From the NCBI GenBank assembly GCA_038747545.1, contig JBCDJT010000004.1:810-64809 (forward strand): 64,000 nucleotides of DNA, written 5' to 3'. This DNA is from Bacteroidota bacterium (lineage in GTDB: Bacteria > Bacteroidota > Rhodothermia > Rhodothermales > JBCCMF01). Below the pieces are notes generated by a model that did not search any database, had not been told where the DNA came from, and was given only the letters and a program-made list of their open reading frames with translations. The position numbers and the translations under genes are program-made. Of this stretch, positions 8,889 through 50,111 are shown piece by piece (within the stretch, counting starts at the first letter, position 1; each line of letters begins with the position of its first letter).

Positions 8889-10194
8889 TCACTTTGGGGA
8901 TGAAGCGCCCGGTGGTGCGCGCGTCTTCGATGCAGTAGGTGGCGGCCACGCGTTGCACGTCGGCGGGCGTGACGCGGTCAATGCGCTCGCGGTACTTCGC
9001 GTACAGCCGCCAGTCCCCCGCCGCAATCGCTTCGTTGAGTTGCGAGGCGATCTGGTATGAGCCATCGCGACCGAATGCCTCTTCCGCTTTGAGGCCGTTC
9101 TTGGCACGCGCCACTTCGGCTTCCGTCGGCCCATCAGTCGCAAGGCGTTGGAGCTCGCCGAGGATGACCTGCTCCACTTCGTCGTGCGTGGTGCCAGGCG
9201 TTAGCATCGCGAAGACGTACACCAGACCGGGATCGCGGAGGCGCGAGGCGTCGCCGAAGAGCGCGGCGACTTTGCCCTGCGCCGTGAGGCTACGGTAGAG
9301 GCGGCTGGACTTGCCTTCGGTGAGGATGGTCGTCAGCACATCCAGCGCGTCGGTGTCCAGCGAGAAGGCATCAGGCGATTTGAAGGCGATCATCAACGAG
9401 CCCAGCTGCCCGGCGCGGCGGATGGTCACGCGGCGCTCGCCCTGCTGGAGCGGCTCCTGCGTTGTCACCTCGGGCCACGCCTCGGGCGCCATCGGTATCG
9501 CGCCGAAGTATTTGTGGATGGCATCCAGCGTCGCCTCCACCTCAAACTGTCCAATCACCGACAGCGTGGCGTTGTTGGGCCAGTAGTAGGTGTCGTAAAA
9601 GTGCCGCAGCCCCTCCGGCGTCACGGTCTCGATGTCCGAGCGCCAGCCGATGGTCGGGTGGTGGTACGGATGCGCCTGATACGCCGCAGCCCAGACGGCG
9701 TGGTAAAGCGCCTGAAGCGGTTCGTTCTCGCCGCGGTCGAACTCGTTGAGGATGACCGTCCGCTCGCTCGCCATGTCATCGGGGTCGAGCAAGACACCGC
9801 GCATGCGGTCGGCTTCGATCTGGAGCGCGAGGTCTAGGTGCTCGCTGGGCAGCAGTTCGAAATAGTTGGTCCGGTCCAGCCACGTCGTGGCGTTCACCTG
9901 CGCCCCTACACGTTGCAGCGTGTTGAAGATGGACGTCCCGTGCTTCTTGTGGAAGCGCTCGGTGCCCTTGAACATCATGTGTTCGAGGAAGTGCGTCGCG
10001 CCCGTGTGGCCGAGCGCTTCGTTGCGGCTTCCTACGCGATACGTGATCATGACGGTGGCAACGGGCGCCGCCGCCTCGGGCAGCAGCAAGACCTGCAAGC
10101 CGTTCGATTTGTGGCGCAGCGCCGTGATGCCCGCTACCGTGTCCTCGATGTCGAAGAACGGATGGGCGTCCGTCGCCGCTTCAATGGTTTCCAT
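8872..10194 (-). CDS. M16 family zinc peptidase, catalytic-type subunit
   Basis: 440 aa. Carries the HxxEH zinc motif in GATHFLEHMMFKGT. Confidence 0.88.
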   Translation of the reverse strand: METIEAATDAHPFFDIEDTVAGITALRHKSNGLQVLLLPEAAAPVATVMITYRVGSRNEALGHTGATHFLEHMMFKGTERFHKKHGTSIFNTLQRVGAQVNATTWLDRTNYFELLPSEHLDLALQIEADRMRGVLLDPDDMASERTVILNEFDRGENEPLQALYHAVWAAAYQAHPYHHPTIGWRSDIETVTPEGLRHFYDTYYWPNNATLSVIGQFEVEATLDAIHKYFGAIPMAPEAWPEVTTQEPLQQGERRVTIRRAGQLGSLMIAFKSPDAFSLDTDALDVLTTILTEGKSSRLYRSLTAQGKVAALFGDASRLRDPGLVYVFAMLTPGTTHDEVEQVILGELQRLATDGPTEAEVARAKNGLKAEEAFGRDGSYQIASQLNEAIAAGDWRLYAKYRERIDRVTPADVQRVAATYCIEDARTTGRFIPKVNGYDE

Positions 10195-22953: not shown

Positions 22954-25400
22954 CCCGAGCACGCTGGATAGCGCTGGAGGACGCGTTCGAGCGCATCGAC
23001 GCGTTGCCCGCTACCGAGCAGGCCGCGGCGATGGCCGACCTGCGCGAACGCGACCCCGTCCTCCACGCTGACCTCGCGGCGCTGCGCGACAGCTACGCCG
23101 CCGAGCCGAATTTCCTGGAAACCGCCTTCGCGGGGTTGCCGCCGCCTCCCGCCCGTCCCCAGACAGGTTATGCGCCCGGCGACCAGATCGGCGTGTACGG
23201 CATCGTGCGGCTCTTGGGCGAGGGCGGCATGGGCAGCGTGTACCTTGTTGAGCGCGAGGCGCCGTACCAGCAGCAGGCCGCGCTCAAGGTGTTGCGCGTG
23301 CGGCCGGGCCGCGACATGGCCCAGCGGTTCCACGCCGAGCGGCAAATCCTGGCTACGCTGACGCACCCGCACATCGCCCGGCTCTTGGACGGCGGTACCA
23401 CGCCCGAGGGGCAGCCCTACTTCGTCATGGCGTACGTGGAGGGCGTCTCGATCACCCAGTACGCCCAGCAGCACCGCTTGGGGCTCGATGCGCGGCTGCG
23501 GCTGTTTCAGGCCGTGTGCCAAGCGGTGGCCTATGCGCACCGCAACCTGGTCGTGCATCGCGACCTCAAGCCCACCAACATCCTGGTCGATGGCGAGGGC
23601 ACGGTGAAGCTGCTCGACTTCGGCATTGCGAAGCTCCTGGCGCCCACCGCTGGGGCGCTGACGGTGGAGACGGGGCGCCTGATGACGCCCGGCTACGCCG
23701 CCCCGGAGCAGATCAAGGGCGAAGCCATCACCACCGCCACGGATGTGTACGCCCTGGGCGTGCTGCTCTACGAACTCCTGACCGACCAGCGCCTCCTCGA
23801 CCCCGCAGCCCACCCGGCCGAGGCGGCGCGGCACATCTGCGAGGCCCCACCCACCCGACCGTCAACGGCCATCACGGGTACGCCCGAGCACCTGCCGTAT
23901 ACGGCGCCTGCGTTGCGCAAGACGCTGCGCGGCGATCTCGACACGATGGTGCTGCACGCGCTCAACAAAGACCCCGAGCGCCGCTACGCCTCTGCCGACC
24001 AGTTCCACGACGACGTGGCCCGCTACCTCGGTGGCCTCCCGCTGAGCGCCCAGCCAGACAGCGTGGGGTATCGGCTGCGCAAGTTCGCCGGGCGGCACCG
24101 CGCGGGCGTGGCGGCGGCGGCGGCGTTCGTCCTGCTCCTCACAGCGGCGAGCCTTGCCCTAGCGCTCCAGGCCAGCCAGCTGCGTGCCACCACGTCTGAG
24201 GCTCTGCAAGCCCAGGCCGAGGCCGAGCAGGTCAGCGCGTTGTTAATCGACGTCTTTCGGGCGGCTGACCCGAACGTGGCCCAGGGCGCAGCGCCCACCG
24301 CGCGCGAGCTGCTCGACCGGGGCCGCGAGAAAGTGGCCGCCGAACTCGACGATCAGCCCGCGACGCGCGCGCAGCTGCTGGCGGTGCTGAGCGACGTGTA
24401 CGACGCCCTGGGCGCACCCGGCGATGCCTTGCCGATGGCCGAGGAGGTGCTCGCGCTCCGGCGCAGGCTGGCATCAGCCGATGCCGATGCTGACGTAGCC
24501 ACCGCGCTCAACCGCCTGGGCTGGCTGCATCACCAGCGCGGGGACCACGCCACCGCCGACTCCATCCTGAACGAAGCCCTCGCGATGCGCCGGGCAGTGC
24601 TCCGCTCGGACGACCCCCGCATCGGGCGTACGCTGAACGATCTGGGCGTGGTCAACCAGTCGCTGGAGCGGCTGGATCGCACGGCGGCGTACATCGAGGA
24701 GGCGCTGTCCATCCGCCGGGCGCACTACGGCCCCACGCACCGCGCCGTGGGCGTTACGCTCAACAACTTGGCCGCGCTGTACTGGGGCCAAGGCGACTAT
24801 GCCAAGGCCGAGCGCGCCTTCCGCGAGTCCTTGGTGGTGCTCGATGCCGAGGACGGCGCCCGAAGCCCGCGCTATGCCGTCGCCTTGCACAACATCGGGA
24901 CGGCGTTGCTCATGCAAGAGGCCTATGACCAAGCCGAAGGCGCGTACCGCCAGGCGCTGGCCATCCGCATGGCGGTCCTGGAACCGGGGCACAAAAACCT
25001 GGCAGATACGCAGTACGGCCTGGGCAACCTGTACAGCCGCATGGGGCGGCTGCGCGAGGCTGACAGCCTGCTCACGGCAGCTGTGGCCACCTACCGCGCC
25101 GGTCATGGCGATGCGTTTGGCCCCGCCGCCCACGCCCTCCTGTCGCTGGCCAAGGTGCGTACACAGCGCCACAGCGCCGACGCCCTAGACGTGCATCAAG
25201 AAGCCTATGCCGCAGCACAGGCCGCGTTTGGCGCGACCCACCGCGAGACGGTGACGGCAGGACTGCAGCTGGCCAAGGCATTGCCCGCTGCCGAGGCGCA
25301 GGCCTTCCTCCGCAACCTCCTCGCCCTACTTGATGCCGCAGGCAGCACCGACGCGGCGCGCGTCCAGGCCGCGCTGGATGACCTGAGCGCATCCATATAA
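22950..25400 (+). CDS. Ser/Thr protein kinase with one TM segment and C-terminal TPR repeats, copy 1
   Basis: Kinase motifs GEGGMGSVY, ALKVL, HRDLKPTNILV, DFGIAKLL and GYAAPEQ. TM segment AGVAAAAAFVLLLTAASLALAL, followed by TPR-like repeats. The start at MTRARW is coupled to the sigma gene. Confidence 0.9.
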   Translation: MTRARWIALEDAFERIDALPATEQAAAMADLRERDPVLHADLAALRDSYAAEPNFLETAFAGLPPPPARPQTGYAPGDQIGVYGIVRLLGEGGMGSVYLVEREAPYQQQAALKVLRVRPGRDMAQRFHAERQILATLTHPHIARLLDGGTTPEGQPYFVMAYVEGVSITQYAQQHRLGLDARLRLFQAVCQAVAYAHRNLVVHRDLKPTNILVDGEGTVKLLDFGIAKLLAPTAGALTVETGRLMTPGYAAPEQIKGEAITTATDVYALGVLLYELLTDQRLLDPAAHPAEAARHICEAPPTRPSTAITGTPEHLPYTAPALRKTLRGDLDTMVLHALNKDPERRYASADQFHDDVARYLGGLPLSAQPDSVGYRLRKFAGRHRAGVAAAAAFVLLLTAASLALALQASQLRATTSEALQAQAEAEQVSALLIDVFRAADPNVAQGAAPTARELLDRGREKVAAELDDQPATRAQLLAVLSDVYDALGAPGDALPMAEEVLALRRRLASADADADVATALNRLGWLHHQRGDHATADSILNEALAMRRAVLRSDDPRIGRTLNDLGVVNQSLERLDRTAAYIEEALSIRRAHYGPTHRAVGVTLNNLAALYWGQGDYAKAERAFRESLVVLDAEDGARSPRYAVALHNIGTALLMQEAYDQAEGAYRQALAIRMAVLEPGHKNLADTQYGLGNLYSRMGRLREADSLLTAAVATYRAGHGDAFGPAAHALLSLAKVRTQRHSADALDVHQEAYAAAQAAFGATHRETVTAGLQLAKALPAAEAQAFLRNLLALLDAAGSTDAARVQAALDDLSASI

Positions 25401-32704: not shown

Positions 32705-32783
32705 GGTATCGTGTTTATGAGTCGTAATCGACGCAATACGCGCGAGGTTGCACGGCCACGGGACTTGTTGCGAGTTCGTTAGC

Positions 32784-35324
<2,541 letters not shown>

Positions 35325-35446
35325 AAGCGTACGGCGTGGTTGGTTCGGAGTACGGCATGCGCTAGGCACACCGTTTACCTGTAAGGCATGAAACGACAGC
35401 CAAAGTGATCATGCAACGGTGCTCCGCCCCGTGAGCGGAGGCAGCG

Positions 35447-36025
35447 TCAGGCATCAGCTTCGGGCCGATCCTTCAGCAGCTGCCCCAGCCACGCCCGCGC
35501 CATGCGCCAGTCGCGCCGCACGGTGGGCACCGAGACGCCCAGCACCTCGGCGACTTCCTCGTGCGTGAGCCCGCCGAAGAAGCGGTACGTGACGACCTTG
35601 CTCTGCCGCTCGTTCCAGGCGGCCAGCCGCTCCAACGCCTCGTCTAGCGCGATCAGGTCGTCGTCGCGAAGGTGCCCAACGACCTGGTCGTCTTGAAACG
35701 TGACCGCGACCTGCCCGCCGCCGCGTTTAAGGGCGCGGCGCTTGTGCGCGTGGTTGACCAGGATGCGGCGCATCGAGATGGCGGCCATGCTGAAGAAGTG
35801 GGCGCGGTTCTGCCAGCTGATCTGTTCCAGCCCGATGAGCTTGAGGTAGGCCTCGTGGACGAGGCCGGTGGTGTTGAGCGTGTGCCCGGCCCGCTCGCCC
35901 TGCAGCTGCCGATGGGCGAGCTGCTGCAAGGCCTCGTACACCTGCGGCAGCAGCGCGTCCACGGCGGCGCGGTTGCCGTCCTTCATGTCCTGAAGCAGTT
36001 GCGTGACGTCGTGGGGGGAGTCCAT
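35447..36025 (-). CDS. ECF sigma factor (kinase-associated type), copy 2
   Basis: Reads MDSPHDVTQLLQDMKDGNRAAVDALLPQVYEALQQLAHRQLQGERAGHTLNTTGLVHEAYLKL...YRFFGGLTHEEVAEVLGVSVPTVRR. Lies 122 nt upstream of its kinase. Confidence 0.88.
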   Translation of the reverse strand: MDSPHDVTQLLQDMKDGNRAAVDALLPQVYEALQQLAHRQLQGERAGHTLNTTGLVHEAYLKLIGLEQISWQNRAHFFSMAAISMRRILVNHAHKRRALKRGGGQVAVTFQDDQVVGHLRDDDLIALDEALERLAAWNERQSKVVTYRFFGGLTHEEVAEVLGVSVPTVRRDWRMARAWLGQLLKDRPEADA

Positions 36026-36211
36026 CGGCAGCGAAGCACGTGGGGGTACGGAGCTAATAACGTCGGTTTTCGGCGTTTTCGAGAACAGTGTACACTTTTC
36101 TTCGGCCCCCGTTATCACTTTGGCCTGTGATTCCAGCCTTACGGGATGAGCGCAACCCCTTCACCCTGCGTCTTTCGCGTCCTCGATCACTTGATTTGAC
36201 TGGCTAGACCC

Positions 36212-37084
36212 ATGCTTGCTTTCGCCACACCGCTTCTCCGCCGTCCCTTCGCCTCCCGCTTCACCTGGTTGTGCGGCATACTCCTCCTCGTCTCCGCGTG
36301 CGACACCTTCAACAGCGACGCCGAATCCGAGGCGCCACTCCTCGCCAGCGCCTCGGCAATCAATAATGGCCTCGTCATCTCCGCCACCTTCGACCGCCCC
36401 ATCGATCCGGCCTCCCTGTCTGCCAGCGACTTCCAGGTGATCTCGGCGCTCGACAACGGACGGACCGGGCGGAGCACGCCCGTCTCGCTCACCTACATCG
36501 ACGGGCCCACGCCACGCGTCGACTTGGTCATGCGGAGCCCGGGCATCGGCAACGGTACCCACACGCTCCAGGCCGAGAACGTGACCGCGCCCAACAGTGC
36601 GGACGTCGCGTCGTCCACGACCACGTTCGACTACCGCTTCGTGGTCCAGACGCCCCGCTCGTTCATCGTGAGCGCGATTGTCGTCACCAACTTCCCCATG
36701 ACCAAGTCCAACGGTTCCACCTGGGACTGGGACCCCTTCGCCTCTACCCCACGCCGCCCCGACATCTACGTGCAGTTCCAGCGGTCAGCGGGCGGCGGCT
36801 TGCCGCTCTACATCTCCAACACGCGGAGCAACGTGACCAACGGACGCTACGACTTCACGCGGCCTGCCTCCCCGAACGACCCCAGCATCCCCTTCACCGC
36901 CGCCTACAGCACCGACTATCTGCTGAGTCTGGTGGATGACGACTTTGGGGGCAACGAGACGATGGTGCAGGCGCAGTTCACGTTCTCCAGCAAATACAAG
37001 CGCGACAACGCCACGACCGATGTGATCACCGTGAGCGGCAATCGGGGTTTCTCCGCAGAAATTCGCGGCACGTGGGTCTACTGA
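36212..37084 (+). CDS. Hypothetical lipoprotein (N-terminal Ig-like region)
   Basis: Lipobox in MLAFATPLLRRPFASRFTWLCGILLLVSAC. Contains LVISATFDRPIDPASLSASDFQV. Divergent from ECF sigma copy 2. Confidence 0.6.
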   Translation: MLAFATPLLRRPFASRFTWLCGILLLVSACDTFNSDAESEAPLLASASAINNGLVISATFDRPIDPASLSASDFQVISALDNGRTGRSTPVSLTYIDGPTPRVDLVMRSPGIGNGTHTLQAENVTAPNSADVASSTTTFDYRFVVQTPRSFIVSAIVVTNFPMTKSNGSTWDWDPFASTPRRPDIYVQFQRSAGGGLPLYISNTRSNVTNGRYDFTRPASPNDPSIPFTAAYSTDYLLSLVDDDFGGNETMVQAQFTFSSKYKRDNATTDVITVSGNRGFSAEIRGTWVY

Positions 37085-37099
37085 TCGTCTTCGGCGGCG

Positions 37100-40000
37100 T
37101 CACTTGAGCAGCACCATCCGCCCCGTCCGCACGGTGTTGGCGGCCTCCAACCGATACAGGTAGGTGCCGCTGGAGAGACGGCTGGCATCGAAGGTCACCG
37201 TGTGCCGACCGGCCGCGCGCGGACCATCCGCCAATACCTGCACCTCGCGGCCCATCAGATCGAACACGACGAGGCGCACCAGCCCCGCTTCAGGCAGCGC
37301 GTAGCCGATGGTGGTAACGGGGTTGAACGGATTCGGGTAGTTGGGCTGCAGCTCGACGGTCCGGGGCAGGGTGATCTCTTCGCGCGGATCGACCGCGACC
37401 ACGAGGGGGCGCGAGGCAAACGTGAAGGGGGCTGACCACGCGCCTCCCTCGCCCTGTGCCGCCACGCCGCGCACCCGCCAGTAATGCACCTGCTGGCTCA
37501 CCGCCAGGCTGTCGAGCGCGTAGCGTGTGCAGGTCAGTCCCTCGACGGCCCGGTGGATGTCGCCAAACCCGCGGTCCAGCGCGATCTCCAGGTCGTAGCT
37601 CGCCGCCTCGGGTAGCGCCCCCCATGTCAGCTCTACGCCGGGCCGGACCGACTGGGCACCGTCAGCGGGGAAGCTCAGGCCGGGCGGTGGCAACGGCGGC
37701 GGACCGCCCTCGCCAAAGCTGAACAAGCCCTGCGGCGTCACCTCGTCGGCGCAGGCGTAGAGGCGGCCTTCGCGCGTTTCGAGGCGGGTGTCGTGGGGCA
37801 CCCACAGCATACCCGTGGCCACGTGCTGCCGCACGATGACGACCTCGTCCGGTGCGTTCAGCCCTTCGGTGGTCAGGCAGAGCGTGGCTTGGGTTTGCCC
37901 ACTCACGTCGGGCAGGCCGAGGCGCCAGGCGCGAAGCACGGGCGTGGTGGGCTGCACCGCCTCGCCCGACGCGTTGAGCGCCACCTCGCCGGAGACCGTG
38001 CCCAGCGGCGGCGGCGCGTCGTAGGACGTCACGAACAGCGAGTCGGCATTGTGCTTGCCGAACCCTGGTAACTCGGCAAACACCTCGTCATCGAGTTGGT
38101 CGAACGGGACGCTGCGCGACTCCGCACGGTCGATGGTGCTGAAGCAGGCGCTGAACGGCCCGGTGCGTCCGGCCACGTCATCGGTGGCCGTCGCGGTGAG
38201 GCCCGTGTTGTTGCCCGGCGTGACGCTGAGGCGGAAGCGCCCCAGCCCCAGCCCGTTGGTTTGCATCGTGGTTGTTGCGAGGAGCGTTTCGCCTTCGGCC
38301 ACGCCTCGGCATGCGAGCGTGCCAAAGACCTGAACGTGGATGGTCTGGTTGGGCGGCCCCAGCACGGCGCCATCCAGCACCTGCGTGGTGTTCAGCACCG
38401 TGCTCACCTCGGTGTAGCCCAGCAGATCCACCATCGGGCGGCGCACCTCGATGGCGCTGGTCGAGAACGTGACGGGGTTGGTGGGCAGAATCCCGACGCG
38501 CTCTACACCCAGAATGTTGTTGCCCAAGATCACGGTGCCGCGCTCGCCGTCAACCTCCGCCCCATCGCCGACCACCACGACCCCAGTCCGGTAGTTGCGG
38601 ATTCGGTTGCTTCCCGTTGCGCCGTCGCCCAGCGTCCCTCCGATGCGCGTGTCCACTGCAGCGTGAATACTCACCGCCCGCTCTCCTCCGGGCGCCCCGA
38701 TGGAGGAGGCCTCGCCGAAGACGTTGCCGGTGATCACCGTGCCTTGTACCGGAAGCAGCTCGTCGCGTGGAGGATAGCTGCCGGGCCCTTCGAGCCGTAT
38801 GCCCATGTCATTGCGAGCCAGCTGGTTACCCAGTCCTTCTTCGGTGCCGCCGATGCGCGTGTTCGTGGCCCCAGGCCGCAAGACGATCCCGAACCGGTTT
38901 TGCTGCGCGCTCGGGAGGTCAATGAGTTCATTTCGACCGTCGCCGAAGACGTTGCCCTCAATCACGGTCTCCAACGTTGGCGCATCGCCGCCGCCGACGC
39001 GGATGCCAGTCTGCAAGCCGTAGAAGCTGTTGGGCAACCCGTTGGCGCCCCCACTAGACACACGCACGCGCTCCGTTCCGATAGCCACTACGCCGACGCC
39101 GTTCTTGTCGAACTGGTCAAACTCGTTGCGGCCTAGCCAGAGCGAGCGGCTGAGGAAGGTCGTGCCCGTGATGGTGGCCTCTTGGACATCGAACAGGCGG
39201 ATGCCCACCTTCTGGGTGGCTCCGAAGAACGCACCAGGCTCGCGGCACGCGCTGACCGTCATATCTGGCCCGATCACGACATCGGACAGGCGGTACAGGT
39301 CGATGCCCGCGTCGCGGCAGTTAGCCAGGGGAAAGCGGTCCCCCTCGTCCCGGAAGACGGCAGGGATGAGGACGTTGCGCACGCGAAGCGTAGACACCCG
39401 CGTCTCGGTGCGCGAATCGGTGAAGCTGAGGGTGCTTCGGGTGGGTGTCACCAGCACCGCTGACGGTATGCGGCCGTCGGCTTCGATGCCGCTTCCCGTG
39501 GCGTTCCCAAGCACCACCGCCGTGCTACCCGTCGCGCCGATCTGTGTGGACGCCGCGCCATAGACGACGATGTTGTCGATGCTGGCCCCTACATCAGGCG
39601 GGATAGCTACTGCGTCGAGCGACGTGCCGCGTATGAGCGTCACCGCCGGATCGATGCCGAAGAGCGTGGAGAGCACGCGGTTGCCCGTAGCCGGCAGGCC
39701 CTCGGCTCCGGCAATAGCCACGTCGGCGAAATAGCCGCCGATGATGTTGGAAAAGCCGGCTTCGCTGGACGTGGCGCGGCCCACGCTGTTGAACGAGGCG
39801 GCGCCCATAATCGCTACGCCTATCCGCGACGTGGAGCCCCTGGGCGGGCTCAGGCGACGGCTGAGATCGGTGCCCAGCGCGTTCCGATGCAGCACGTTGC
39901 CGTCGGCGGGCGCCTCGGCGTCTTCGGAGACGATGAGGATCTCGCCCTCGCGGTTGCCGCGGATGAACTGGTCCACAGGGCGGTTGGAGTTGGCGGGCTG

Positions 40001-42742
40001 GCCGACGGTGGTGTTGGAGGCCGACTCGATGAGGATGCCCCAGCGGTTGCCCGTTGTGCCCAACTCGTCGAAGGCACCGATGACGTTCTCGGAGAGCGTG
40101 TTGCCCGCCGCCGCGGCGCCCTTGACGTGGATGCCGATGCCCGTGTTACCCGCCACGGTGCTCGTGGTGACCGTGTGGTCGGGGCCTTCGATCAAGATAC
40201 CCGTCTGGTTGGCCGTTGCGTCGGCGCCGGGCAGGACGCCCACCACCGCGCACCGCACCGTAGCTTCGCGCGCACCAGCGGCGAGGTGGATGCCGGCCAC
40301 CGTGTTGCCCGCGATCAGGTTGGACAAGCATACCGCTTCGTCGTCCGGCCGGGGGACGGTGCCGATCTTGGCGTTGGCGCCCTCCGCCACGCGGATGCCT
40401 ACGCTGTTGTTCACCGCGCGCATGGAGTCGACTTGCGCATCGGCAGTGATCTGGAGGGCGGGGCCGTTGAAGTCGCGCAGCGTCAGCCCGCTCACCGAGA
40501 TGGGCGAGCCCGCCAACTGCAGCCCTGGCACCGTGCTGGTTGAGCCTTCGCCGCTGACCACGATGACAGGTCCGGCGGCAGGGCTGACGTAGCCGGGCTG
40601 GCTCGTTCCCTGGATCACGACGGGCCGCTCGATGGGCGGCAGGGGTGCCGGTCTGATCGTACAGACACCGTCGGAGCAGCCGCTGTCGTCAGCCGGGATG
40701 TCGAAGGTGATGAACCACGGATCGGTGCCGTCCTGGCCGTTGACGGCCTCGATGGCGGCGCGGAGCGTACACTGCTCGCCGTCCTCGGCGCGATCCACGT
40801 CGCAGACGTCCTCCGCGGCGCTGTCCGGGTGGTTGGCCTCATCGCCCGTCGAGTTGACGACGAGGATTTTGGGCAGGATGTCGAGGCGGGCGCACCCGAT
40901 GCTGGCGTCGTCACGCGCACCGCCCACGCCCGGCGGCGGCGCGGCTTGGTCCAGACTACAGTTCGACACCAGCTCCTCGATCCGCTGCCGCGTGCTGTCC
41001 TCCATGACCGCCTCGGCCTCCACCCGAGGCACGAACACGCGAACGTTCGACTCGACGCTGACCGCCTCGTGGATGAACAGCAGTTCCCCCGTAGAGTCGG
41101 GCTCCAATCGGTCGATGATGAGGTTTTCCCCGCGCGCGAAGCGCAGCGACCCCAGCTCGCTCAGGATGTCGATGCCGTCCTCGTTGCGCGGCACACGGAT
41201 GTTGACCAGCGGCAACGCGCCCGTGTTGAATACCTTCAACCGCACCCGCAACGAGTCGCCTATGGTGACGCGCAGCGTGTCGTCATCGGTGCTTGTGCCC
41301 CGTGTATCGCGCCGCTTCCCTGCTGCCTCCGGCACCACCAGCTCCAGGTCCAGCTCGTAACGCATCGCCGCCTCAGACGCCGCCAGGTTGGCGCGCCAGC
41401 CCTGGAGCTGTCCGCTCGGATTGATGGCGTTGCCCACGATCACGGTGCCGTCGTCACTCACGGCGGTAGCCTCGATGAGCCGCCAGCCCGTGAGGTCCAG
41501 GCCGAAGTCGTCGATCAGGACATCCTGCACGGCCCGCGAGCCCTGCTCGGGCGTCCAGATCGTCGCGACACGCATCCCCCTGAACGTACCCGAGACGTTG
41601 CCGTTGCTCGCTTGCTGGTTTCCGAAGATCTCGTAGCCTACAATCACGGTGCCGTCCGCGTTGGTGGCCATCGGGGTGGCACGGCCTTCGGTGAAGCCGT
41701 AGTCACGGGCAGGCGTGATGCGGGGCAGGATGGTCGTGGCTCCGTTCGCATACCGAGCGACGCGCTCGTCTAGGTCGAACTCTTGCTTGTAGTCTTGGCC
41801 AATCACCACCGACCCGTCGGCACTCACGGCAACCACCTGGAACGTCACATTCGGGATGGGAATGGCTTCCTGTGCGCCGTTTACGACACGCACGGGGGTG
41901 AAGCTCGTGGTGAGGCCGGCCACGCCCGCTACGACGCTTCCGTCATCGGACGCGTCAACGATGCGTAGGTCCTCGATGAACACCTTGTGGTGATTCTGGA
42001 ACTGACCGAAGCCCGGGAAGCCGTCGGCGTCTGAGAACGCAGGCCAGGAGCTGGGGTTGGTGCCCATGAGCGCCCCATCCACCCACCGGATGGGGTCGTA
42101 GATGTCACCCGTCTTGCCAGTGAACGCACTGCCGTAGAGGGCGAGCAGCTCGCCCTGGACAGTACGACCATCGGCCGAAATCGACAAGCCGCCGCCCACG
42201 ATCTCCCTGGGCTTCACGGCGCCAGCAGCGGCGCTCACCTCCGGCAGGGATAGCATCGTCCACTCGCCTCCGTTGAAGCTGTCCGTCGGGTCGATCGAAA
42301 AGATCGCCGGCTCCGGGTTCCTGATGAAGCTGCCATTGGTCCCATTGAAGCTCCTGCGGCAAGCCGAGCCGAACGCCTGAAACGGCGGGCTCTCGGACCG
42401 GCACTGGCGCGTCAGAATGTGGCGCCCGTCGGCAGACACCTCGATGGGGAAGACGCTGGAGATGAACCGCCGGATGGGTGTGACTGTGCCCGCGGCATCC
42501 GTCCAGTAGATCTCGTGGTTGTTGCTGCCCGTGGTGCGCAGCATCCCGCTCACCACGCTCCCGTCTGCCGACACAGCCTCGGCGCTAGACAAGTCGTAGG
42601 CGCCACTTGCGAGGTCACCCAAGGTCTCGAACGACTGAGCATACCCCGAGGGCACGAGCACCGCTGCAAGTAGACTGGCCAGGACGGGCCACGCATAGAC
42701 CAGCTTCGGCGACACGGCGGATAGGCGAGCGGCTTTGGACAT
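37100..42742 (-). CDS. 1880-aa T9SS-sorted surface protein: N-terminal HAF-like repeats, parallel beta-helix repeats, Fn3-like region, C-terminal sorting domain
   Basis: Signal peptide present. Recurrent ADGSVV(S/I)G / DDGTVIVGN-type repeats. CTLRAAIEAVN motif, then long GN..GI..-type beta-helix repeats. C-terminus is NYPNPFNPVTTIGYALP...YLYRLEAANTVRTGRMVLLK. Confidence 0.85.
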   Translation of the reverse strand: MSKAARLSAVSPKLVYAWPVLASLLAAVLVPSGYAQSFETLGDLASGAYDLSSAEAVSADGSVVSGMLRTTGSNNHEIYWTDAAGTVTPIRRFISSVFPIEVSADGRHILTRQCRSESPPFQAFGSACRRSFNGTNGSFIRNPEPAIFSIDPTDSFNGGEWTMLSLPEVSAAAGAVKPREIVGGGLSISADGRTVQGELLALYGSAFTGKTGDIYDPIRWVDGALMGTNPSSWPAFSDADGFPGFGQFQNHHKVFIEDLRIVDASDDGSVVAGVAGLTTSFTPVRVVNGAQEAIPIPNVTFQVVAVSADGSVVIGQDYKQEFDLDERVARYANGATTILPRITPARDYGFTEGRATPMATNADGTVIVGYEIFGNQQASNGNVSGTFRGMRVATIWTPEQGSRAVQDVLIDDFGLDLTGWRLIEATAVSDDGTVIVGNAINPSGQLQGWRANLAASEAAMRYELDLELVVPEAAGKRRDTRGTSTDDDTLRVTIGDSLRVRLKVFNTGALPLVNIRVPRNEDGIDILSELGSLRFARGENLIIDRLEPDSTGELLFIHEAVSVESNVRVFVPRVEAEAVMEDSTRQRIEELVSNCSLDQAAPPPGVGGARDDASIGCARLDILPKILVVNSTGDEANHPDSAAEDVCDVDRAEDGEQCTLRAAIEAVNGQDGTDPWFITFDIPADDSGCSDGVCTIRPAPLPPIERPVVIQGTSQPGYVSPAAGPVIVVSGEGSTSTVPGLQLAGSPISVSGLTLRDFNGPALQITADAQVDSMRAVNNSVGIRVAEGANAKIGTVPRPDDEAVCLSNLIAGNTVAGIHLAAGAREATVRCAVVGVLPGADATANQTGILIEGPDHTVTTSTVAGNTGIGIHVKGAAAAGNTLSENVIGAFDELGTTGNRWGILIESASNTTVGQPANSNRPVDQFIRGNREGEILIVSEDAEAPADGNVLHRNALGTDLSRRLSPPRGSTSRIGVAIMGAASFNSVGRATSSEAGFSNIIGGYFADVAIAGAEGLPATGNRVLSTLFGIDPAVTLIRGTSLDAVAIPPDVGASIDNIVVYGAASTQIGATGSTAVVLGNATGSGIEADGRIPSAVLVTPTRSTLSFTDSRTETRVSTLRVRNVLIPAVFRDEGDRFPLANCRDAGIDLYRLSDVVIGPDMTVSACREPGAFFGATQKVGIRLFDVQEATITGTTFLSRSLWLGRNEFDQFDKNGVGVVAIGTERVRVSSGGANGLPNSFYGLQTGIRVGGGDAPTLETVIEGNVFGDGRNELIDLPSAQQNRFGIVLRPGATNTRIGGTEEGLGNQLARNDMGIRLEGPGSYPPRDELLPVQGTVITGNVFGEASSIGAPGGERAVSIHAAVDTRIGGTLGDGATGSNRIRNYRTGVVVVGDGAEVDGERGTVILGNNILGVERVGILPTNPVTFSTSAIEVRRPMVDLLGYTEVSTVLNTTQVLDGAVLGPPNQTIHVQVFGTLACRGVAEGETLLATTTMQTNGLGLGRFRLSVTPGNNTGLTATATDDVAGRTGPFSACFSTIDRAESRSVPFDQLDDEVFAELPGFGKHNADSLFVTSYDAPPPLGTVSGEVALNASGEAVQPTTPVLRAWRLGLPDVSGQTQATLCLTTEGLNAPDEVVIVRQHVATGMLWVPHDTRLETREGRLYACADEVTPQGLFSFGEGGPPPLPPPGLSFPADGAQSVRPGVELTWGALPEAASYDLEIALDRGFGDIHRAVEGLTCTRYALDSLAVSQQVHYWRVRGVAAQGEGGAWSAPFTFASRPLVVAVDPREEITLPRTVELQPNYPNPFNPVTTIGYALPEAGLVRLVVFDLMGREVQVLADGPRAAGRHTVTFDASRLSSGTYLYRLEAANTVRTGRMVLLK

Positions 42743-42856
42743 GCTTTTCTGCTCCAGGGCGAGGCAAGTTGGACACGCATGCTATGGTATACGAGAGAAT
42801 ATAGCCTATGCACAAACGCTCAGGGCAGAACTGCACGCGTTTTGCTCCTCACCTCG

Positions 42857-42925
42857 TCAGCGCACCGTCTGCGCCACCGCGCCCGTCCCGGGGTGCTGCA
42901 GGATATGCGTAAAGCTGCCTTGGGG
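42857..42925 (-). pseudogene. Displaced 3'-terminal fragment of the Gfo/Idh/MocA gene, copy 1 (oldest, ~69 nt)
   Basis: Translates to GSFTHILQHPGTGAVAQTVR* versus [20 protein letters not shown] in the live gene. Starts at the stop codon TCAGC. Confidence 0.6.
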
Positions 42926-42939
42926 CCCTCGCACGCGTG

Positions 42940-43374
42940 TCAACCTGCAGGCAACCACGGGTTGACAAGCGAAATGCCGCAGCCCTCGAAGTCGGATGTG
43001 TTGCGCGTGGCAAGCACTGCCTGGGCTGTTGTGGCGATAGCAGCGATCATCATATCGACGGTGTCCGCGTGGAGCCCCTGTGACTCGCGCTTCGCCGAGA
43101 CCGGGCCACACGCATAGGCCGCTGCCTTGTCGAAAACGAGCAGACGCTCCGCGAAGGCCTCGTCGATGAAGGCCGAGAACCGCTCCTCCAACCCGCGCCG
43201 CCGCTTACCATCCGGCAGACGCATGAGGCCACGTTGGATCTCGGCAACAGTGATGCCGGTCGTCGCCAGTTCCAGTAGGTCTTGGGCTTCGAGCCACGCC
43301 GCGACACCTTTATTTGGCTTGGGCCGCATGAGTTCGGAGATGACGTTGGTATCCAGAATGATCATGTCAGCCAA
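42940..43374 (-). CDS. vapC: PIN-domain toxin VapC (FitB-like)
   Basis: Reads MADMIILDTNVISELMRPKPNKGVAAWL...HADTVDMMIAAIATTAQAVLATRNTSDFEGCGISLVNPW. Confidence 0.9.
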   Translation of the reverse strand: MADMIILDTNVISELMRPKPNKGVAAWLEAQDLLELATTGITVAEIQRGLMRLPDGKRRRGLEERFSAFIDEAFAERLLVFDKAAAYACGPVSAKRESQGLHADTVDMMIAAIATTAQAVLATRNTSDFEGCGISLVNPWLPAG

Positions 43375-43612
43375 AGTCGGCAGGATCGCGACGACTCGAC
43401 CGCTCAGGCAGGTCTAACTCCACGCCACCGTATGATCCGAAGTGTTTCTTCGCCAAGTCGAGAATGGGTACGGGCTCACTACCGTCGCCTACCGCTGCCT
43501 TCTGCAGCGCACGCCGCGCATAGGCCTCTAGCGACATGCCTGCCTGAGCAGCGCGTACACGCAAGGCCTCCTTAGTATGGGCAGAAAGCCCGCGAACGTT
43601 GATGTTGGGCAT
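43367..43612 (-). CDS. vapB: VapB/FitA-like antitoxin (ribbon-helix-helix type)
   Basis: Reads MPNINVRGLSAHTKEALRVRAAQAGMSLEAYARRALQKAA. Overlaps vapC by 8 nt. Confidence 0.85.
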   Translation of the reverse strand: MPNINVRGLSAHTKEALRVRAAQAGMSLEAYARRALQKAAVGDGSEPVPILDLAKKHFGSYGGVELDLPERSSRRDPADFG

Positions 43613-43696
43613 GAAATGGGGCCTGACGTGCGTCCAATGGATACAATTATTCCAACAGGCTCAAAGCATCTTGGATCCAAACCAGATCTGCCCCCG

Positions 43697-43859
43697 TCAG
43701 CTCATCGTCAGCGACACGGCGCCCGTCTCGGGGTCTTGCAGGATGCGCTTGAAGCTGCCGTCGGGCATGAGTTTATTTGATGACTACCTTGCCGTCGTGC
43801 ATCTCCTTCGTCACGGTGGTGCCGCCGCGCCAGTCGTCGATCTCCGCCAGCGCGACTTG
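43697..43859 (-). pseudogene. Displaced 3'-terminal fragment of the Gfo/Idh/MocA gene, copy 2 (frameshifted)
   Basis: Aligns to the live gene end. A 2-nt deletion turns ...VIKEELMPD into VIK-TAA. Two further internal deletions are present. Abuts the hicB stop. Confidence 0.85.
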
Positions 43860-44078
43860 TCATGCAGCGCGGCGCACCTCGACGTACCCCACCTGAGACT
43901 GAGGCGCTGGTATTGCCTCTCCTTCCTCGGCGAGCCCGTCTAGGTGAAACTCTATCGCCTCGACGATTAGACGACGCACCTCTTGCTCGCTCTCACCGAC
44001 AGCGACACAGCCAGGCAAGTCAGGCACGTAAGCTCCGAAGCTGGTCGGACCTGGTTCGATAATCACCGCATATCGCAT
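43860..44078 (-). CDS. hicB: HicB-family antitoxin
   Basis: Reads MRYAVIIEPGPTSFGAYVPDLPGCVAVGESEQEVRRLIVEAIEFHLDGL. Confidence 0.88.
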   Translation of the reverse strand: MRYAVIIEPGPTSFGAYVPDLPGCVAVGESEQEVRRLIVEAIEFHLDGLAEEGEAIPAPQSQVGYVEVRRAA

Positions 44079-44087
44079 GGGCTTCCT

Positions 44088-44276
44088 CTACTCGTTTAGT
44101 CCAGCCTGTTTGAAAATGCTCTTGAGTGTACCGGTAGGAATATCGAGGCTCGGCTTGCCAGCCACAGTTACTGTACCCGGCTTGGTAGGGTGCTTGAATT
44201 GGCGATGGCTGCCTCGGGTTCTCGCCAGATACCAGCCCTCGCGCGTGAGTACCTTGATAACCTCTCGAACCTTCAT
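44088..44276 (-). CDS. hicA: HicA mRNA-interferase toxin
   Basis: Reads MKVREVIKVLTREGWYLARTRGSHRQFKHPTKPGTVTVAGKPSLDIPTGTLKSIFKQAGL. Confidence 0.9.
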   Translation of the reverse strand: MKVREVIKVLTREGWYLARTRGSHRQFKHPTKPGTVTVAGKPSLDIPTGTLKSIFKQAGLNE

Positions 44277-44356: not shown

Positions 44357-44609
44357 TCAGCTCACTGTCTGCGACACGGCGCCTGTTTCGGGGTCTTGCA
44401 GAATGCGTTTGAAGCTGCCGTCGGGCATCAGCTCTTCTTTGATGACCACCTTGCCGTCGTGCATCTCCTTGGGCACCTCGATCCGCTCGGTGGTGCCGCC
44501 ACGCCGGTCGTCGATCTCCACGGGCTCCCACTTGCGCGACTTGGCCGAGCGGTAGCAGGCGTTGACGATGTAGCCATCGTGGAAGGTTTCCATCGGCTCT
44601 TTACTGTCG
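44357..44609 (-). pseudogene. Displaced 3'-terminal fragment of the Gfo/Idh/MocA gene, copy 3
   Basis: Hand alignment shows 19 substitutions (3 non-synonymous: Y>H, W>R, A>E) plus an in-frame 12-nt deletion (IIDA) relative to 48921..49190. Still an open frame (track ORF 44357..44680). Confidence 0.9.
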
Positions 44610-44661
44610 TACAAGCCCTCAGCAAAACGGGACAAAGAAATGCCGAAAATGAGCGATGGTT

Positions 44662-45594
44662 TTAGGCAGTAAGCGTCCAAAGATCCCGCAGTATCAAGGT
44701 CTCGATTCCAGCTATACGAGCCGATAGAGCGCCATCGCTTTCCATTTCGGGGCGAGGATCTACAAAGTAGACGCCATCAAGCGAGCCCAGAGCTACACTA
44801 TACCCGAGAAAGTGGTTACGCTTGAACGTAGACGCGATACCAAAGATTGACCCGGAGCGCTTCGCACGCTGCACGTCATGTAGGAAGACGCCGACAACGG
44901 GGACGTCTCGTCCAACAAGCGCTGAAATCATCTTCTTATCGAGGAAAACCTTGTCGATCCTGTCTTTGCTTGTGGTCTTGACTGAACCGATCACTTCACC
45001 TGGTAGCAGTGGGGTCTCACCTGTCCAGACGACGCCGTTTTTTGAGAAAACAAGGTCCAGTTCGTACTTCATGGTGAACCCGTCACCCCCTGGCACGGGA
45101 AGCACAACGGTGCGCGGCTCGCAGGTCAACCCGGTTTCCTGAACAAGAAGAAGGATCAGCCGCTCAAACACCTGCCCGACTCGCTTTCTCGCCCGGTTTG
45201 CATTGCGAAGTGAGTCTGCGACGCACCCCACGGCTTGTTGGGCCGTGTAAAGCACGCGTCGCATCTCGCCCGACCGTTTATATGAGTCAACAGGACTTAG
45301 CTGGTTGTTGGCAGCCGTGTTGATCGCGTCGAGCATTCGGTTAAATGCCGCTTTGAATTCATCCGGTCGCCTGATCCAGAGATCAAAGTTCAGCGGTCGA
45401 GTGATTGCTCGTTGATACTGTGCACCGAACTGGTAGAAGCGATATCGGGAATCATTCGGAGCATGGATGAGCGTTGGTTGCTCTGCGTCCACATATTCGA
45501 GGAAGGCTGCCCCAAACAGCCGGTAATGGTTGAGAACCGTGAATCCTGAAAGATCGATCAGTCCTTCTTGAAGGGGAGCAAGTGGTCCGTTCAT
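44662..45594 (-). CDS. Putative type II restriction endonuclease (PD-(D/E)xK-like)
   Basis: 310 aa. Start overlaps the MTase stop (ATGA). Candidate catalytic region is YELDLVF...GSVKTTSKDR. Family not recognised. Lower G+C than the flanks. Confidence 0.6.
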   Translation of the reverse strand: MNGPLAPLQEGLIDLSGFTVLNHYRLFGAAFLEYVDAEQPTLIHAPNDSRYRFYQFGAQYQRAITRPLNFDLWIRRPDEFKAAFNRMLDAINTAANNQLSPVDSYKRSGEMRRVLYTAQQAVGCVADSLRNANRARKRVGQVFERLILLLVQETGLTCEPRTVVLPVPGGDGFTMKYELDLVFSKNGVVWTGETPLLPGEVIGSVKTTSKDRIDKVFLDKKMISALVGRDVPVVGVFLHDVQRAKRSGSIFGIASTFKRNHFLGYSVALGSLDGVYFVDPRPEMESDGALSARIAGIETLILRDLWTLTA

Positions 45595-46592
45595 CGGATC
45601 GCCTTCCTCCGCTCCTCATTTGCACGATCATAGGCAATCCACTTCTCGACGCTCCATCGTTCGACTCGTTCGAGACGGTCAATCGCCCAGGTTGAATATT
45701 CAGGCGTCAGGTCACAGCCAGACCAACGGCGGCCGAGCTGTTCTGCAACTACGGGCGTAGTGCCCGAACCAAAGAAGGGGTCAACTACGAGATCTTCAGG
45801 ATTCGATGACGCTAATACAAGGCGCCGAATCAGTTCCTCTGGTTTCTGCGTCGGATGTGGCGTCTTTTCATGCATTCCGTTGCATGTTGTAGGTATCTCT
45901 ATCACATCTTTTGGTTTGGCCCCTCGTGGGTGAGGCGTCCAGTGATCTTTCCGCTTCTTCCCATTTCCGTACTGGCTTGTCTTTGCCTGGGGATGGGAGG
46001 GGTACTTCAGCGTGTGCGCCCCATAGGGGATACGTACGTCATCTGTGTTGAACGTGAACCGTTTGCTCTTGCGAAAGTGGAGAATGCTCTCGTGCGAGCG
46101 TCCCCAGTCATTACGCAAGTTCGCTTTGTTTTTGTAGTGCCACACAAGCCAGCGGCACCCCGTGAAGTAGCGCGAAGCTGGATGCCGAAGATCAGCTAGG
46201 ATTTCCGAAAAGCCACAGACATACAGCGTCCCTTGTGGCGTCAGCACACGAGAAGCCTGTTCGATCCATGCCAACGACCATTCGACATAGGCCTGCTGCG
46301 ACTCAAAGGTGTCCCACTCTGCCTTCTTGATGCTGTAGGGCGGGTCGGCCACGATCAGATCTACGCTGGCGTCAGGCAAGGTATTCAACCAAGCAGCGGC
46401 ATCGGCTACCCATAGCGCGCCGTTGGGATGTTCGTAGACCTTGACAGGAGACTCAGCCTTACGAACTTCGGGCAGATCAAATTTTGTCCCACGTGGGTCA
46501 GGCGGAGGAAACAGACTGGGTTCGTTATCAGGCTTTTTGGCTCGCGCGAAGGATCGGGCAGGTTCTCTGACTTTCGCTTGCTCCATCGGCAT
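45591..46592 (-). CDS. DNA methyltransferase, beta class (motif IV DPPY before motif I FGSGTT); probably N6-adenine
   Basis: 333 aa. Motif LIVADPPYSIKKAEWD is followed, near the C-terminus, by VVDPFFGSGTTPVVAEQLGRRWSGCD. Confidence 0.88.
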   Translation of the reverse strand: MPMEQAKVREPARSFARAKKPDNEPSLFPPPDPRGTKFDLPEVRKAESPVKVYEHPNGALWVADAAAWLNTLPDASVDLIVADPPYSIKKAEWDTFESQQAYVEWSLAWIEQASRVLTPQGTLYVCGFSEILADLRHPASRYFTGCRWLVWHYKNKANLRNDWGRSHESILHFRKSKRFTFNTDDVRIPYGAHTLKYPSHPQAKTSQYGNGKKRKDHWTPHPRGAKPKDVIEIPTTCNGMHEKTPHPTQKPEELIRRLVLASSNPEDLVVDPFFGSGTTPVVAEQLGRRWSGCDLTPEYSTWAIDRLERVERWSVEKWIAYDRANEERRKAIR

Positions 46593-46674
46593 TGCTTGGG
46601 TTCATTCGGAGAAGACCTCAGAATATAGCCAGGACTGCTCTGCTTGTGCCCCCACACCAGAAATTGCTCGATAG

Positions 46675-46905
46675 TCAGCTCACCGTCTGCGACACAGCGC
46701 CCGTCTCGGGGTCTTGCAGGATGCGCTTGAAGCTGCCGTCAGGCATGAGTTCTTCTTTGATGACCACCTTGCCGTCGTGCATCTCCTTGGGCACGGCGAT
46801 GCGCTCGGTGGTGCCGCCGCGCCAGTCGTCGATCTCCACGGGCTCCCACTTGCGCGACTTGGCCGAGCGGTAGCACGCGTCGATGATGGCGTTGACGATG
46901 TAGCC
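46675..46905 (-). pseudogene. Displaced 3'-terminal fragment of the Gfo/Idh/MocA gene, copy 4 (youngest)
   Basis: 231 nt aligns to 48921..49151 with 8 substitutions, all synonymous. The encoded 76 aa are identical to the live C-terminus. Confidence 0.95.
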
Positions 46906-47010
46906 ACAATAACGTCTCGCAATACTGCTGCGCGGCCTGCCCGCAGGCAAGCGAAGTATACCTACCTGTCAACCCGTGACAGCAGCAACACCTTGTTTGA
47001 CGGTGGGGGC

Positions 47011-48705: not shown

Positions 48706-48920
48706 AGGCCCCTTGAGTTTTTCACGTCCTGAAGCACCGCCTAACTAGTATAGATGTATGCAGCGTGCGAATATAACACTACGCTTTGCACCTACAAAGT
48801 TCAGTCTATCCAGGAGTTTAACCTAGTTGGCTGAATTTAATCAGCATATTTGCAACTTTCCTACAGGGGCCAAAGCTAATGCTGCGAACGGAATCACCCT
48901 GCGGCATGGCGTGTGCGCTC

Positions 48921-50111
48921 TCAGCTCACGGTCTGTGACACGGCGCCCGTCTCGGGGTCTTGCAGGATGCGCTTGAAACTGCCGTCAGGCATGAGTTCTT
49001 CTTTGATGACCACCTTGCCGTCGTGCATCTCTTTGGGCACCGCGATGCGCTCGGTGGTGCCGCCACGCCAGTCGTCGATCTCGACGGGCTCCCACTTGCG
49101 CGACTTGGCCGAGCGGTAGCACGCGTCGATGATGGCGTTGACGATGTAGCCGTCGTAGAACGTTTCCATGGGCTCTTTGCCGTCGTCGATACTGTCGAGC
49201 ATGTCGGTGAACATGTCGGTGTAGCCGAGGGCGGCTACCTCGTCGCCGACGGGGAAGAGCCAGCCGTTATCGACCTCGACCTTCTCGGCCACGTAGCCGC
49301 CTTGTCCGCCTTTGGTGAACATCTCGAAGCCGGTGCGCAGCCAGTGGTTGAGCCAGATGGTGCCTTGTGTGCCCGAGACCTCGTCGCGCAGGTCCATGCC
49401 GCCGTGAAACGCCCAGCTCACCTCGAACTGCCCCACCGCGCCGCTCTCAAACTTGACGAGCCCGACGGCGTGGTCCTCAGCTTGGATCGGATGCACGAGC
49501 GTGTCGGCCCAGCACATGACCTCGACGGGGCGATTGCCTTTGCCGACGAAGTTGCGGATGATCTCGACGCAGTGGCACCCCATGTCGATCATGGCGCCGC
49601 CGCCTGCCTGGTTGTGGTCCCAGAACCACGCGCTGTGCGGCCCCGGATGCGTCTCGCGCGAGCGCACCCACAGCACATCGCCGATGGCGCCGTTTTGCAC
49701 GGAGGCGATGGACTTGAGGGTCTTGGGCGTGTAGCAGAGGTCCTCGAGGTAGCCGTGGAAGACGCCCGCCTTTTCCACCATGTCAAGCATGCGCTTGGCC
49801 TCCTCGGCGGTGCGGCCCAGCGGCTTCGTACACAGGATCGCCTTGCCCGCTTCGGCGCAGAGGCGCACGCATTCCTCGTGGACGATGTTAGGCAGGCCGA
49901 TCACGACCACGTCGGTGTCGGGGTGTTCGATGGCGGCTTTGAGGTCGTCGGTGGCGTGGCCGATGTCCCACGTCTTGGCGAACTCGGCGGCGCGTTCAGC
50001 GCGGCGCGAGTAGACCACGGCCACCTCGTCGCGGCTGCGCTTGCCGTGCAGCGTCATCGTGTAAAACATGCCGATCAGCCCGGTGCCGAGCATCGTGATT
50101 TTATGTCCCAT
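48921..50111 (-). CDS. Gfo/Idh/MocA-family NAD(P)-dependent oxidoreductase (intact target gene of the cassette array)
   Basis: 396 aa. Rossmann N-terminus [17 protein letters not shown]..., then CTKPLGRT and the typical C-terminal alpha/beta domain. Confidence 0.9.

Follow-up and report, generated by a model that had tools for sequence, protein, structure and literature searches.

Displaced ends of a Gfo/Idh/MocA-family gene in a Rhodothermales genome: probable former alleles in a stack of toxin-antitoxin, restriction-modification and defence cassettes

Replacement of a gene's 3' end by incoming DNA is known from integrase-driven elements, such as e14 and phage 21 in the icd gene of E. coli and the IMEs and CIMEs that accrete in tandem. 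All of these carry the gene of a site-specific integrase or rely on such an enzyme, and their crossover site is fixed. The locus described here resembles them in that the incoming DNA brings a replacement end with mostly synonymous differences, a fragment of the old end staying behind; it differs from them in having no integrase gene nearby, in its variable boundaries, and in the many genes that are targeted. With chromosomal integron arrays it shares the one-sided stack of promoter-poor, single-module toxin-antitoxin (TA) or defence cassettes, the newest of which lies at the entry point. Unlike those arrays, however, it contains neither IntI nor attC, and its cassettes are separated by copies of the end of a host gene.

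Insertion with long target duplication has been described for restriction-modification (RM) genes, which are flanked by direct repeats of 46-423 bp; the repeats were read as a local duplication of the target, with the mechanism unknown (Nobusato et al. 2000; Furuta, Abe and Kobayashi 2010, PMC2853133). The present locus likewise holds small selfish units without a mobility gene between long repeats of variable length, whose sequence is single-copy at the empty site of a relative, and one of its cassettes (B) is itself a type II RM pair. It departs from the described cases in that the copies appear as different alleles, the insert opens with gene-flanking DNA of foreign origin, the cargo additionally comprises TA pairs, an OLD nuclease and ATPases, and five or six layers are stacked at a single gene end. 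For the Rhs and T6SS effector-immunity displacement arrays, homology-facilitated illegitimate recombination with no integrase has been proposed (Jackson et al. 2009, PMC2935791; Kirchberger et al. 2017, PMC5361080). There, as here, new modules enter by homology beside a conserved part of a gene, and older 3' pieces are pushed downstream according to age. The displaced tips of those arrays, however, are variable toxin domains with immunity genes and constitute the cargo, whereas in our case the displaced piece is a conserved enzyme end without function and the cargo is unrelated to the gene. Our best reading of the array is that it combines insertion with long target duplication and sequential displacement, with the added point that the "duplicated" ends are different alleles.

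The stretch of DNA analysed, referred to as the window, comprises 64,000 nt of a Bacteroidota bacterium (Rhodothermales; JBCCMF01; assembly GCA_038747545.1, contig JBCDJT010000004.1, positions 810-64,809 of the forward strand). The genome that carries it (G000) is a MAG of an uncultured organism, with 247 contigs and a completeness of 88%, and the contig of the window is 74 kb long. A same-genus MAG representing a sister species (G001) is the sole close relative among the order-level relatives compared; its Gfo gene is 95% identical in DNA to that of G000, the encoded proteins are 98% identical, and the contig with the gene stops 47 nt past the stop codon. The third genome, the Rhodothermales MAG GCA_054602135.1, was reached via the protein cluster of the live Gfo gene and shows ~86% DNA identity to the window across the GntR-Gfo stretch and ~90% inside the Gfo gene. 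Comparisons of Gfo alleles rest on these three, that is G000, G001 (95%) and the third genome (~86%). An exact-protein look-up of the live Gfo returned no record, and a metagenome scan for Gfo relatives gave 80 loci, all with at most 74% identity and none with displaced ends; for the Gfo gene the pattern is therefore lineage-specific.

The live gene is of an ordinary sugar-dehydrogenase type. Read on the single MAG contig from this gene toward lower coordinates, the order is cassette A, displaced gene end c4, cassette B, c3, cassette C, c2, cassette D, c1 and the gene of a 1880-aa T9SS protein (Table 1). The repeat finder gave five copies of the Gfo gene end, which become shorter and more decayed away from the gene, and a sixth remnant of 9 nt (c0) lies at 32779-32787. 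From c4 to c1, identity to the gene end declines from 97% through ~92% and ~84% to 74%, and indels grow with distance. All five main copies have the last ~78 nt in common. The 5' boundaries of the copies lie 231, 254, ~150, 78 and 9 nt before the stop, and the cassettes start ~47 or more, 31, 5, 2 and 4 nt past it, which means that both repeat boundaries vary in every layer and that there is no common crossover point. The motif GA(A/G)ACGTT is found 5-7 nt (at the far end ~13-15 nt) upstream of the c4 boundary, both in the gene and at the cassette end, and is no more than suggestive of microhomology at the non-homologous junction.

Each cassette amounts to a single module with hardly anything added, every ORF in the cassettes has an annotation, and the G+C content of the cassettes (52-60%) contrasts with that of the flanks (65-70%). 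The nuclease of cassette A is also AriA/GajA-like according to PADLOC, and the same tool recognised both genes of cassette B (MTase_II 1.5e-63, REase_II 1.6e-52). The closest homologue of the cassette A OLD protein, with 90% amino acid identity, sits in an unrelated defence island, with homology confined to the CDS, and the OLD homologue loci P0002 and P0003 have no gene-end arms in common with the window. The displaced fragments correspond to the same Gfo/Idh/MocA C-terminus throughout, and not to variable toxin tips with immunity genes.

Table 1. Coordinates of the array features in the window, from the live gene toward lower coordinates, and of the further cassettes on other contigs of G000
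Feature	Coordinates	Strand	Evidence
Live Gfo/Idh/MocA-family oxidoreductase gene, 396 aa	48921..50111	minus	ORF; Pfam GFO_IDH_MocA N- and C-terminal domains
Resident 3' end, segment repeated downstream	48921..49151	minus	repeat finder and pairwise comparison
3' UTR past the live stop, type of the G001 Gfo gene	48845..48920	minus	ungapped 24/32 to G001, 12/32 to post-c4 sequence
Stretch of ~105 nt with 79% identity to the DNA immediately ahead of the G001 integron integrase gene	48742..48844	minus	sequence match to L114 2045-2146
Cassette A cargo: OLD-family ATPase-nuclease, 564 aa	47011..48705	minus	Pfam AAA_21/AAA_15; PADLOC Old 6e-27
Displaced gene end copy 4 (c4), 231 nt, 8 synonymous differences, no indel	46675..46905	minus	comparison with 48921-49151
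Native-type Gfo 3' UTR, ~31 nt kept past c4	46644..46674	minus	21/32 to third genome; BLAST runs on to 46651
Cassette B cargo: type II restriction-modification pair	44662..46592 (MTase 45591-46592, REase 44662-45594)	minus	Pfam N6_N4_Mtase
Displaced gene end copy 3 (c3), 254 nt aligned	44357..44610	minus	17 synonymous, 4 non-synonymous, 12-nt in-frame deletion
Cassette C cargo: HicA toxin and HicB antitoxin	43860..44276 (HicA 44088-44276, HicB 43860-44078)	minus	Pfam
Displaced gene end copy 2 (c2), ~150 nt	43696..43845	minus	frame broken by deletions
Cassette D cargo: FitA-like RHH antitoxin and PIN/VapC toxin	42940..43612 (antitoxin 43367-43612, toxin 42940-43374)	minus	Pfam
Displaced gene end copy 1 (c1), last ~78 nt only, 74% identical	42856..42933	minus	repeat finder
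Oldest layer: 1880-aa T9SS protein gene and ECF-sigma/kinase pair	32788..42855	minus	absent in third genome, present in G001
c0: last 9 nt of Gfo gene end (GTGAGCTAA), then native 3' UTR and DUF2805 gene	32779..32787	minus	third genome junction
Ten further G000 cassettes, part 1	C20 22931/23647, C33 18827/19817, C35 9327/10081, C43 9080/10512, C67 22453/23641
Ten further G000 cassettes, part 2	C73 19405/21362, C129 6206/6860, C138 4162/4705, C168 1863/3224, C171 550/1115

An earlier note on this DNA, based on a hand alignment, had claimed that c4 differs from the resident end at 8 of 231 nt and nevertheless encodes the same protein. A machine comparison of 46675-46905 with 48921-49151, with the minus strand read in the live gene's frame, reproduced exactly the mismatches it had listed (plus-strand aligned positions 10, 16, 22, 58, 112, 121, 145 and 163), and translation gave the same 76 residues and stop (ending GAVSQTVS*) for both copies. 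The codon-position tally places all eight differences at codon position 3, all eight being synonymous, with no even spread over the codon. For c3 the note had counted 16 synonymous changes among 19; our tally differs, with 17 synonymous and 4 non-synonymous differences over 254 aligned nt and a 12-nt in-frame deletion, and its message is the same.

The chance that eight differences out of eight fall at codon position 3 is (1/3)^8 = 1.5e-4. According to an exact calculation, a random substitution in the c4 sequence is synonymous with a probability of 0.22-0.27, and eight synonymous changes out of eight under decay in place would have P = 6e-6 to 3e-5, the value varying with the transition bias. 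On-the-spot duplication makes a fairer null, in which the displaced copy then changes neutrally and the live copy only synonymously. Under this null a difference is synonymous with a probability of 0.36-0.43, which for the c4 pair gives P = 3e-4 to 1e-3. Decay of c4 in place was rejected (P ~1e-5), and on-the-spot duplication with local divergence was rejected as well (P ~1e-3). When the three youngest gene-end pairs in the genome are pooled, 15 of 15 differences are synonymous (P ~1e-6), and in the gene-end pairs across the genome the changed fraction is 0.09-0.46 for synonymous sites and 0-0.07 for non-synonymous sites, the oldest-looking pair excepted.

At gene-end positions 69, 174, 216 and 222 the live copy has a base that none of c4, c3, G001 and the third genome shows, each time a synonymous change; at position 111 it is c4 alone that differs, and the remaining three of the eight sites are polymorphisms common to another copy or a relative. 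Because four changes are unique to the live copy and one to c4, it is the live end that represents the more diverged allele, c4 having barely altered from its time as a functional end. Considered over the three alleles, the four derived synonymous changes and the foreign-type UTR described below suggest that the anchor segment in the recipient was replaced by a donor allele. Divergence between the Gfo genes of G000 and G001 is very uneven, with 21 differences in nt 199-396 but a single one in nt 496-693, and the differences of the third genome are spread evenly along the whole gene. Such a distribution is a sign of recombination between the lineages of the two species within the Gfo gene, and the clear mosaic indicates that recombination in the gene is frequent. 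In comparison with G001 and the third genome only, this mosaic gene shows no clean breakpoint at nt 961 of the live copy, and among the three alleles the changes that only the live copy has do not cluster 3' of nt 961.

The sequences beyond the stop codons are informative as well. They were compared ungapped over the 32 nt past each stop, as gapped global alignment against shuffles proved too permissive. The live copy matches the G001 Gfo gene at 24/32 positions (P ~5e-7), c4 matches the third genome at 21/32 (P ~1e-4), and c0 matches the third genome at 26/32, the agreement of c4 with c0 (16/32, P ~0.05) being marginal. The live copy and c4 agree at 12/32 positions, which is the chance level, though their coding parts are 97% identical. 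Because the two are unrelated past the stop, the start of cassette A is regarded as a foreign-type Gfo 3' UTR, and cassette A should therefore come from a genome where it adjoined a Gfo 3' end. As judged from these sequences, cassette A most likely entered as a single piece composed of gene end, foreign UTR and cargo. A true duplication of the local target does not describe this locus, given the P value of the c4 pair under that null and the differing UTR types.

In the third genome the same upstream genes are followed by a Gfo gene whose stop runs directly into a DUF2805 gene and two sulfatase genes, corresponding to window 32787-29158. As Gfo is joined there directly to window 32787-32459, the third genome represents the empty site. 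It is without window 48920-32788, i.e., 16.1 kb with the four cassettes, the 1880-aa gene and the ECF-sigma/kinase pair, and the gene end, whose copies form flanking repeats of 78-254 nt in the window, is single-copy. The remnant c0 (GTGAGCTAA) matches the last bases of the live gene at 8 of 9 positions; it marks the original junction, and the DUF2805 gene is the original downstream neighbour of Gfo. The 1880-aa T9SS gene with the ECF/kinase pair is itself an old insertion, common to G001. The proposal of the earlier note that the divergence arose while both ends worked in different lineages is supported by the codon statistics, the polarity of the changes, the other gene-end pairs, the UTR types and the empty site.

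The Gfo gene is not alone in this organisation. A whole-assembly self-comparison of G000 revealed many short local direct repeats, and at nine or more other sites an intact gene precedes a small cassette, behind which its end recurs in truncated form, the cargo being ParE, Zeta toxin, PIN, HicA and STAND-like ATPases. From a reading of the ORFs rather than a family-library scan, some of the target genes look like those of arginyl-tRNA synthetase, biotin carboxylase and an SDR-type dehydrogenase. Ten further cassettes (ParE, Zeta, PIN, HicAB twice, STAND-like ATPases and unknowns) lie between direct repeats of 47-235 nt. In nine of the ten the repeat is the end of the intact neighbour gene; the one on C171 seems to span a gene start. 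Four cassettes of G000 recur at the corresponding sites of the sister species, in which the AccC site is empty. On G001 contig C247 (L114 11-190, 856-1035), the 3' end of a TolC-like gene, a DUF433/DUF5615 (PIN-like) pair and a 93%-identical 180-nt copy of the end are found at a site convergent with an integron integrase gene. At the C43 site (G000 9073-9189, 10505-10621; L125, L126), two last-codon allele types, ..FDE* and ..FDG*, occupy swapped live and displaced positions in G000 versus G001. The middle of both copies is identical in G000, and this central tract suggests gene conversion between the copies.

Some observations concern the assemblies themselves. In G001 two versions of the C43 locus are present on separate contigs. 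There are also two multi-copy repeat families of ~170-280 nt, MITE- or REP-like in appearance (L121 505-700 on G001 C70; G000 C2, C7, C34, C89 and others; C67 ~23900-24200), one of which follows the ArgS-like gene in G001 and the other the C67 site, with ~25 copies in G001. The G001 contigs C82, C129, C419, C378 and C39 end at, or within ~300 nt of, such gene ends or downstream flanks. It seems that short-read assembly fails at these hotspots because of gene-end repeats or differences between strains.

We favour, with a probability of roughly 0.6, the explanation that foreign DNA was imported with homology to the gene as its anchor, and that c4, which formerly served as the functional 3' end of Gfo, was displaced on the acquisition of cassette A. 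The recombination pathway and the transfer route that we infer would run as follows. A donor fragment composed of the 3' part of the donor's Gfo gene, its 3' UTR and the cargo gene would arrive by horizontal transfer and pair with the Gfo gene of the recipient, ordinary RecA-type homologous recombination providing the anchor. The far end of the fragment would join within the gene end of the recipient, at a point 231 nt ahead of the stop. An illegitimate join, of the kind known as homology-facilitated illegitimate recombination, would represent the birth of a layer. Alternatively, a second homologous crossover via a truncated gene-end copy already on the donor would spread an existing layer; this route would be a plain double crossover with both arms in one gene, and a layer could by this means reach any genome with the gene. 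The outcome would be an intact gene with a donor-allele end, then the cargo, then the recipient's former end, and five or six repeats of the event would build the array with the newest layer adjoining the gene. The duplicated segment would always span the stop codon because selection keeps only those events that leave the gene whole.

The earlier note had further claimed that each cassette travels with a functional piece of its target gene. The presence of foreign Gfo-flanking DNA on cassette A speaks for this, and "travels with" is best read as import on a donor fragment which uses the gene as a homology anchor, rather than as a discrete element in possession of a gene piece. It counts against import that a stack of five layers behind a single gene would require a pool of Gfo-linked cargo throughout the population or, failing that, a site favoured locally. 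Neither a donor nor an intermediate array was found in the protein look-up, the metagenome Gfo scan and the contexts of OLD homologues. In experiments, homology-facilitated illegitimate recombination reportedly usually deletes, and does not duplicate, recipient DNA. Gene conversion between the copies could moreover blur their histories. The broader generalisation, to which we would give somewhat less than even odds, is that conserved gene ends may be general, recombinase-free docking sites for small cassettes of selfish or defence genes, and that such cassettes may spread between species with a functional end of the target gene as a homing arm and pile up in integron-like stacks that need no integrase, in this lineage at ten genes or more across the genome. 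A truncated copy on the far side would give the unit two arms in one gene, and ordinary homologous recombination could then admit it to any genome with that gene.

Among the other explanations, one supposes that the copies were identical at birth by duplication and that homologous recombination later put a diverged allele of another strain in place of the live end. The structure is exactly as Furuta et al. give it for RM genes (PMC2853133), the mosaic Gfo gene speaks for allelic replacement, and C43 for conversion between copies. Nevertheless, the duplication must then end exactly at the stop, with an insert that by chance starts with a sister-type Gfo UTR, and the replacement tract must reach nt 222 of 231 yet halt before the cassette, unless the donor already had cassette A. 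As the synonymous excess is general, two steps would also be needed at each of many sites, and we regard this course of events as unlikely. A recombinase encoded elsewhere could instead integrate non-autonomous, CIME-like elements with an att site in the last codons and an attP that carries the replacement end. Elements driven by an integrase typically leave a gene's 3' end in direct repeats and accrete in tandem, and the ~78 nt common to the five main copies would suit such a site. The 88% complete G000 contains six tyrosine recombinase genes and one serine recombinase gene, all on other contigs, and a product of one of these may act in trans, but neither the array nor the rest of the 74-kb contig yielded an integrase or resolvase gene in the ORF annotation and Pfam search (the PF00589 and PF00239 profiles were without a match). 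The boundaries of the repeats differ per layer on both sides, the cassettes are single modules without an element backbone, and at least nine different target genes in one genome would need an equal number of specificities. The many different targets therefore argue against one att-specific recombinase, and an origin of this kind seems very unlikely.

That c4 is a functional small gene, kept free of non-synonymous changes by purifying selection in place, is highly improbable. The 91-aa ORF that spans it (46675-46950, with a TTG start) appears among the proteins of the genome's public annotation and shares a 90% protein cluster with the full-length enzyme; its 15 N-terminal residues, however, are junction sequence, and most differences are derived in the live copy and not in c4. 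The older copies decay, c2 by frame-breaking deletions and c1 to a scrambled state, and the same pattern at many unrelated genes would require many mini-proteins. An integron, or the remnant of one, could have captured the cassettes by means of its integrase, and TA and defence cargo is typical of chromosomal integrons. In addition, the ~105 nt ahead of the OLD gene, which are 79% identical to DNA adjacent to the integron integrase gene of G001 (a true one; TIGR02249, 442 bits), may be an attI-like relic: the homology ends after CTAGTTA (GTTAGGC in the window), a GTTRRRY-like core, and a different gene comes next in each genome. Yet this element shows no significant hairpin, no intI adjoins it in the window, and among species representatives it was found in G001 only. 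A search of the 88% complete G000 with the IntI of G001 gave no homologue apart from a generic tyrosine recombinase of contig C12, which is a weak hit (E 7e-6). No attC-like hairpins were seen at the cassette ends, where folds are no better than those of shuffles (a criterion used in place of a dedicated attC model), and it is gene-end copies that separate the cassettes. An integron origin was rejected on the absence of intI from G000, the absence of attC-like folds and the limitation of the 105-nt element to G001, and we see hardly any likelihood in it. The least credible explanation is an assembly artefact that chained strain variants of a mixed population in one contig. The MAG is indeed divided into 247 contigs, and contigs of G001 break at these very sites; but each junction of a cassette with a truncated end is unique and offers no homology to mislead an assembler, the copies differ enough to be separated, and G001 has the same cassette-plus-copy structures at four other sites.

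The mechanism of insertion with long target duplication has been open since 2000, and the locus suggests that, here at least, the "duplication" is the meeting of two alleles. Import anchored in the gene predicts a dependence on RecA, tracts of the donor allele in the live gene, and spread only among genomes that share the gene. If true, it would explain how TA, RM and defence modules without mobility genes move between species with no dedicated enzyme. It would likewise explain why they pile up behind particular core genes and why metagenome assemblies break at such genes. The displaced ends would then be dated molecular fossils of former alleles, which could be used to order the events of acquisition.
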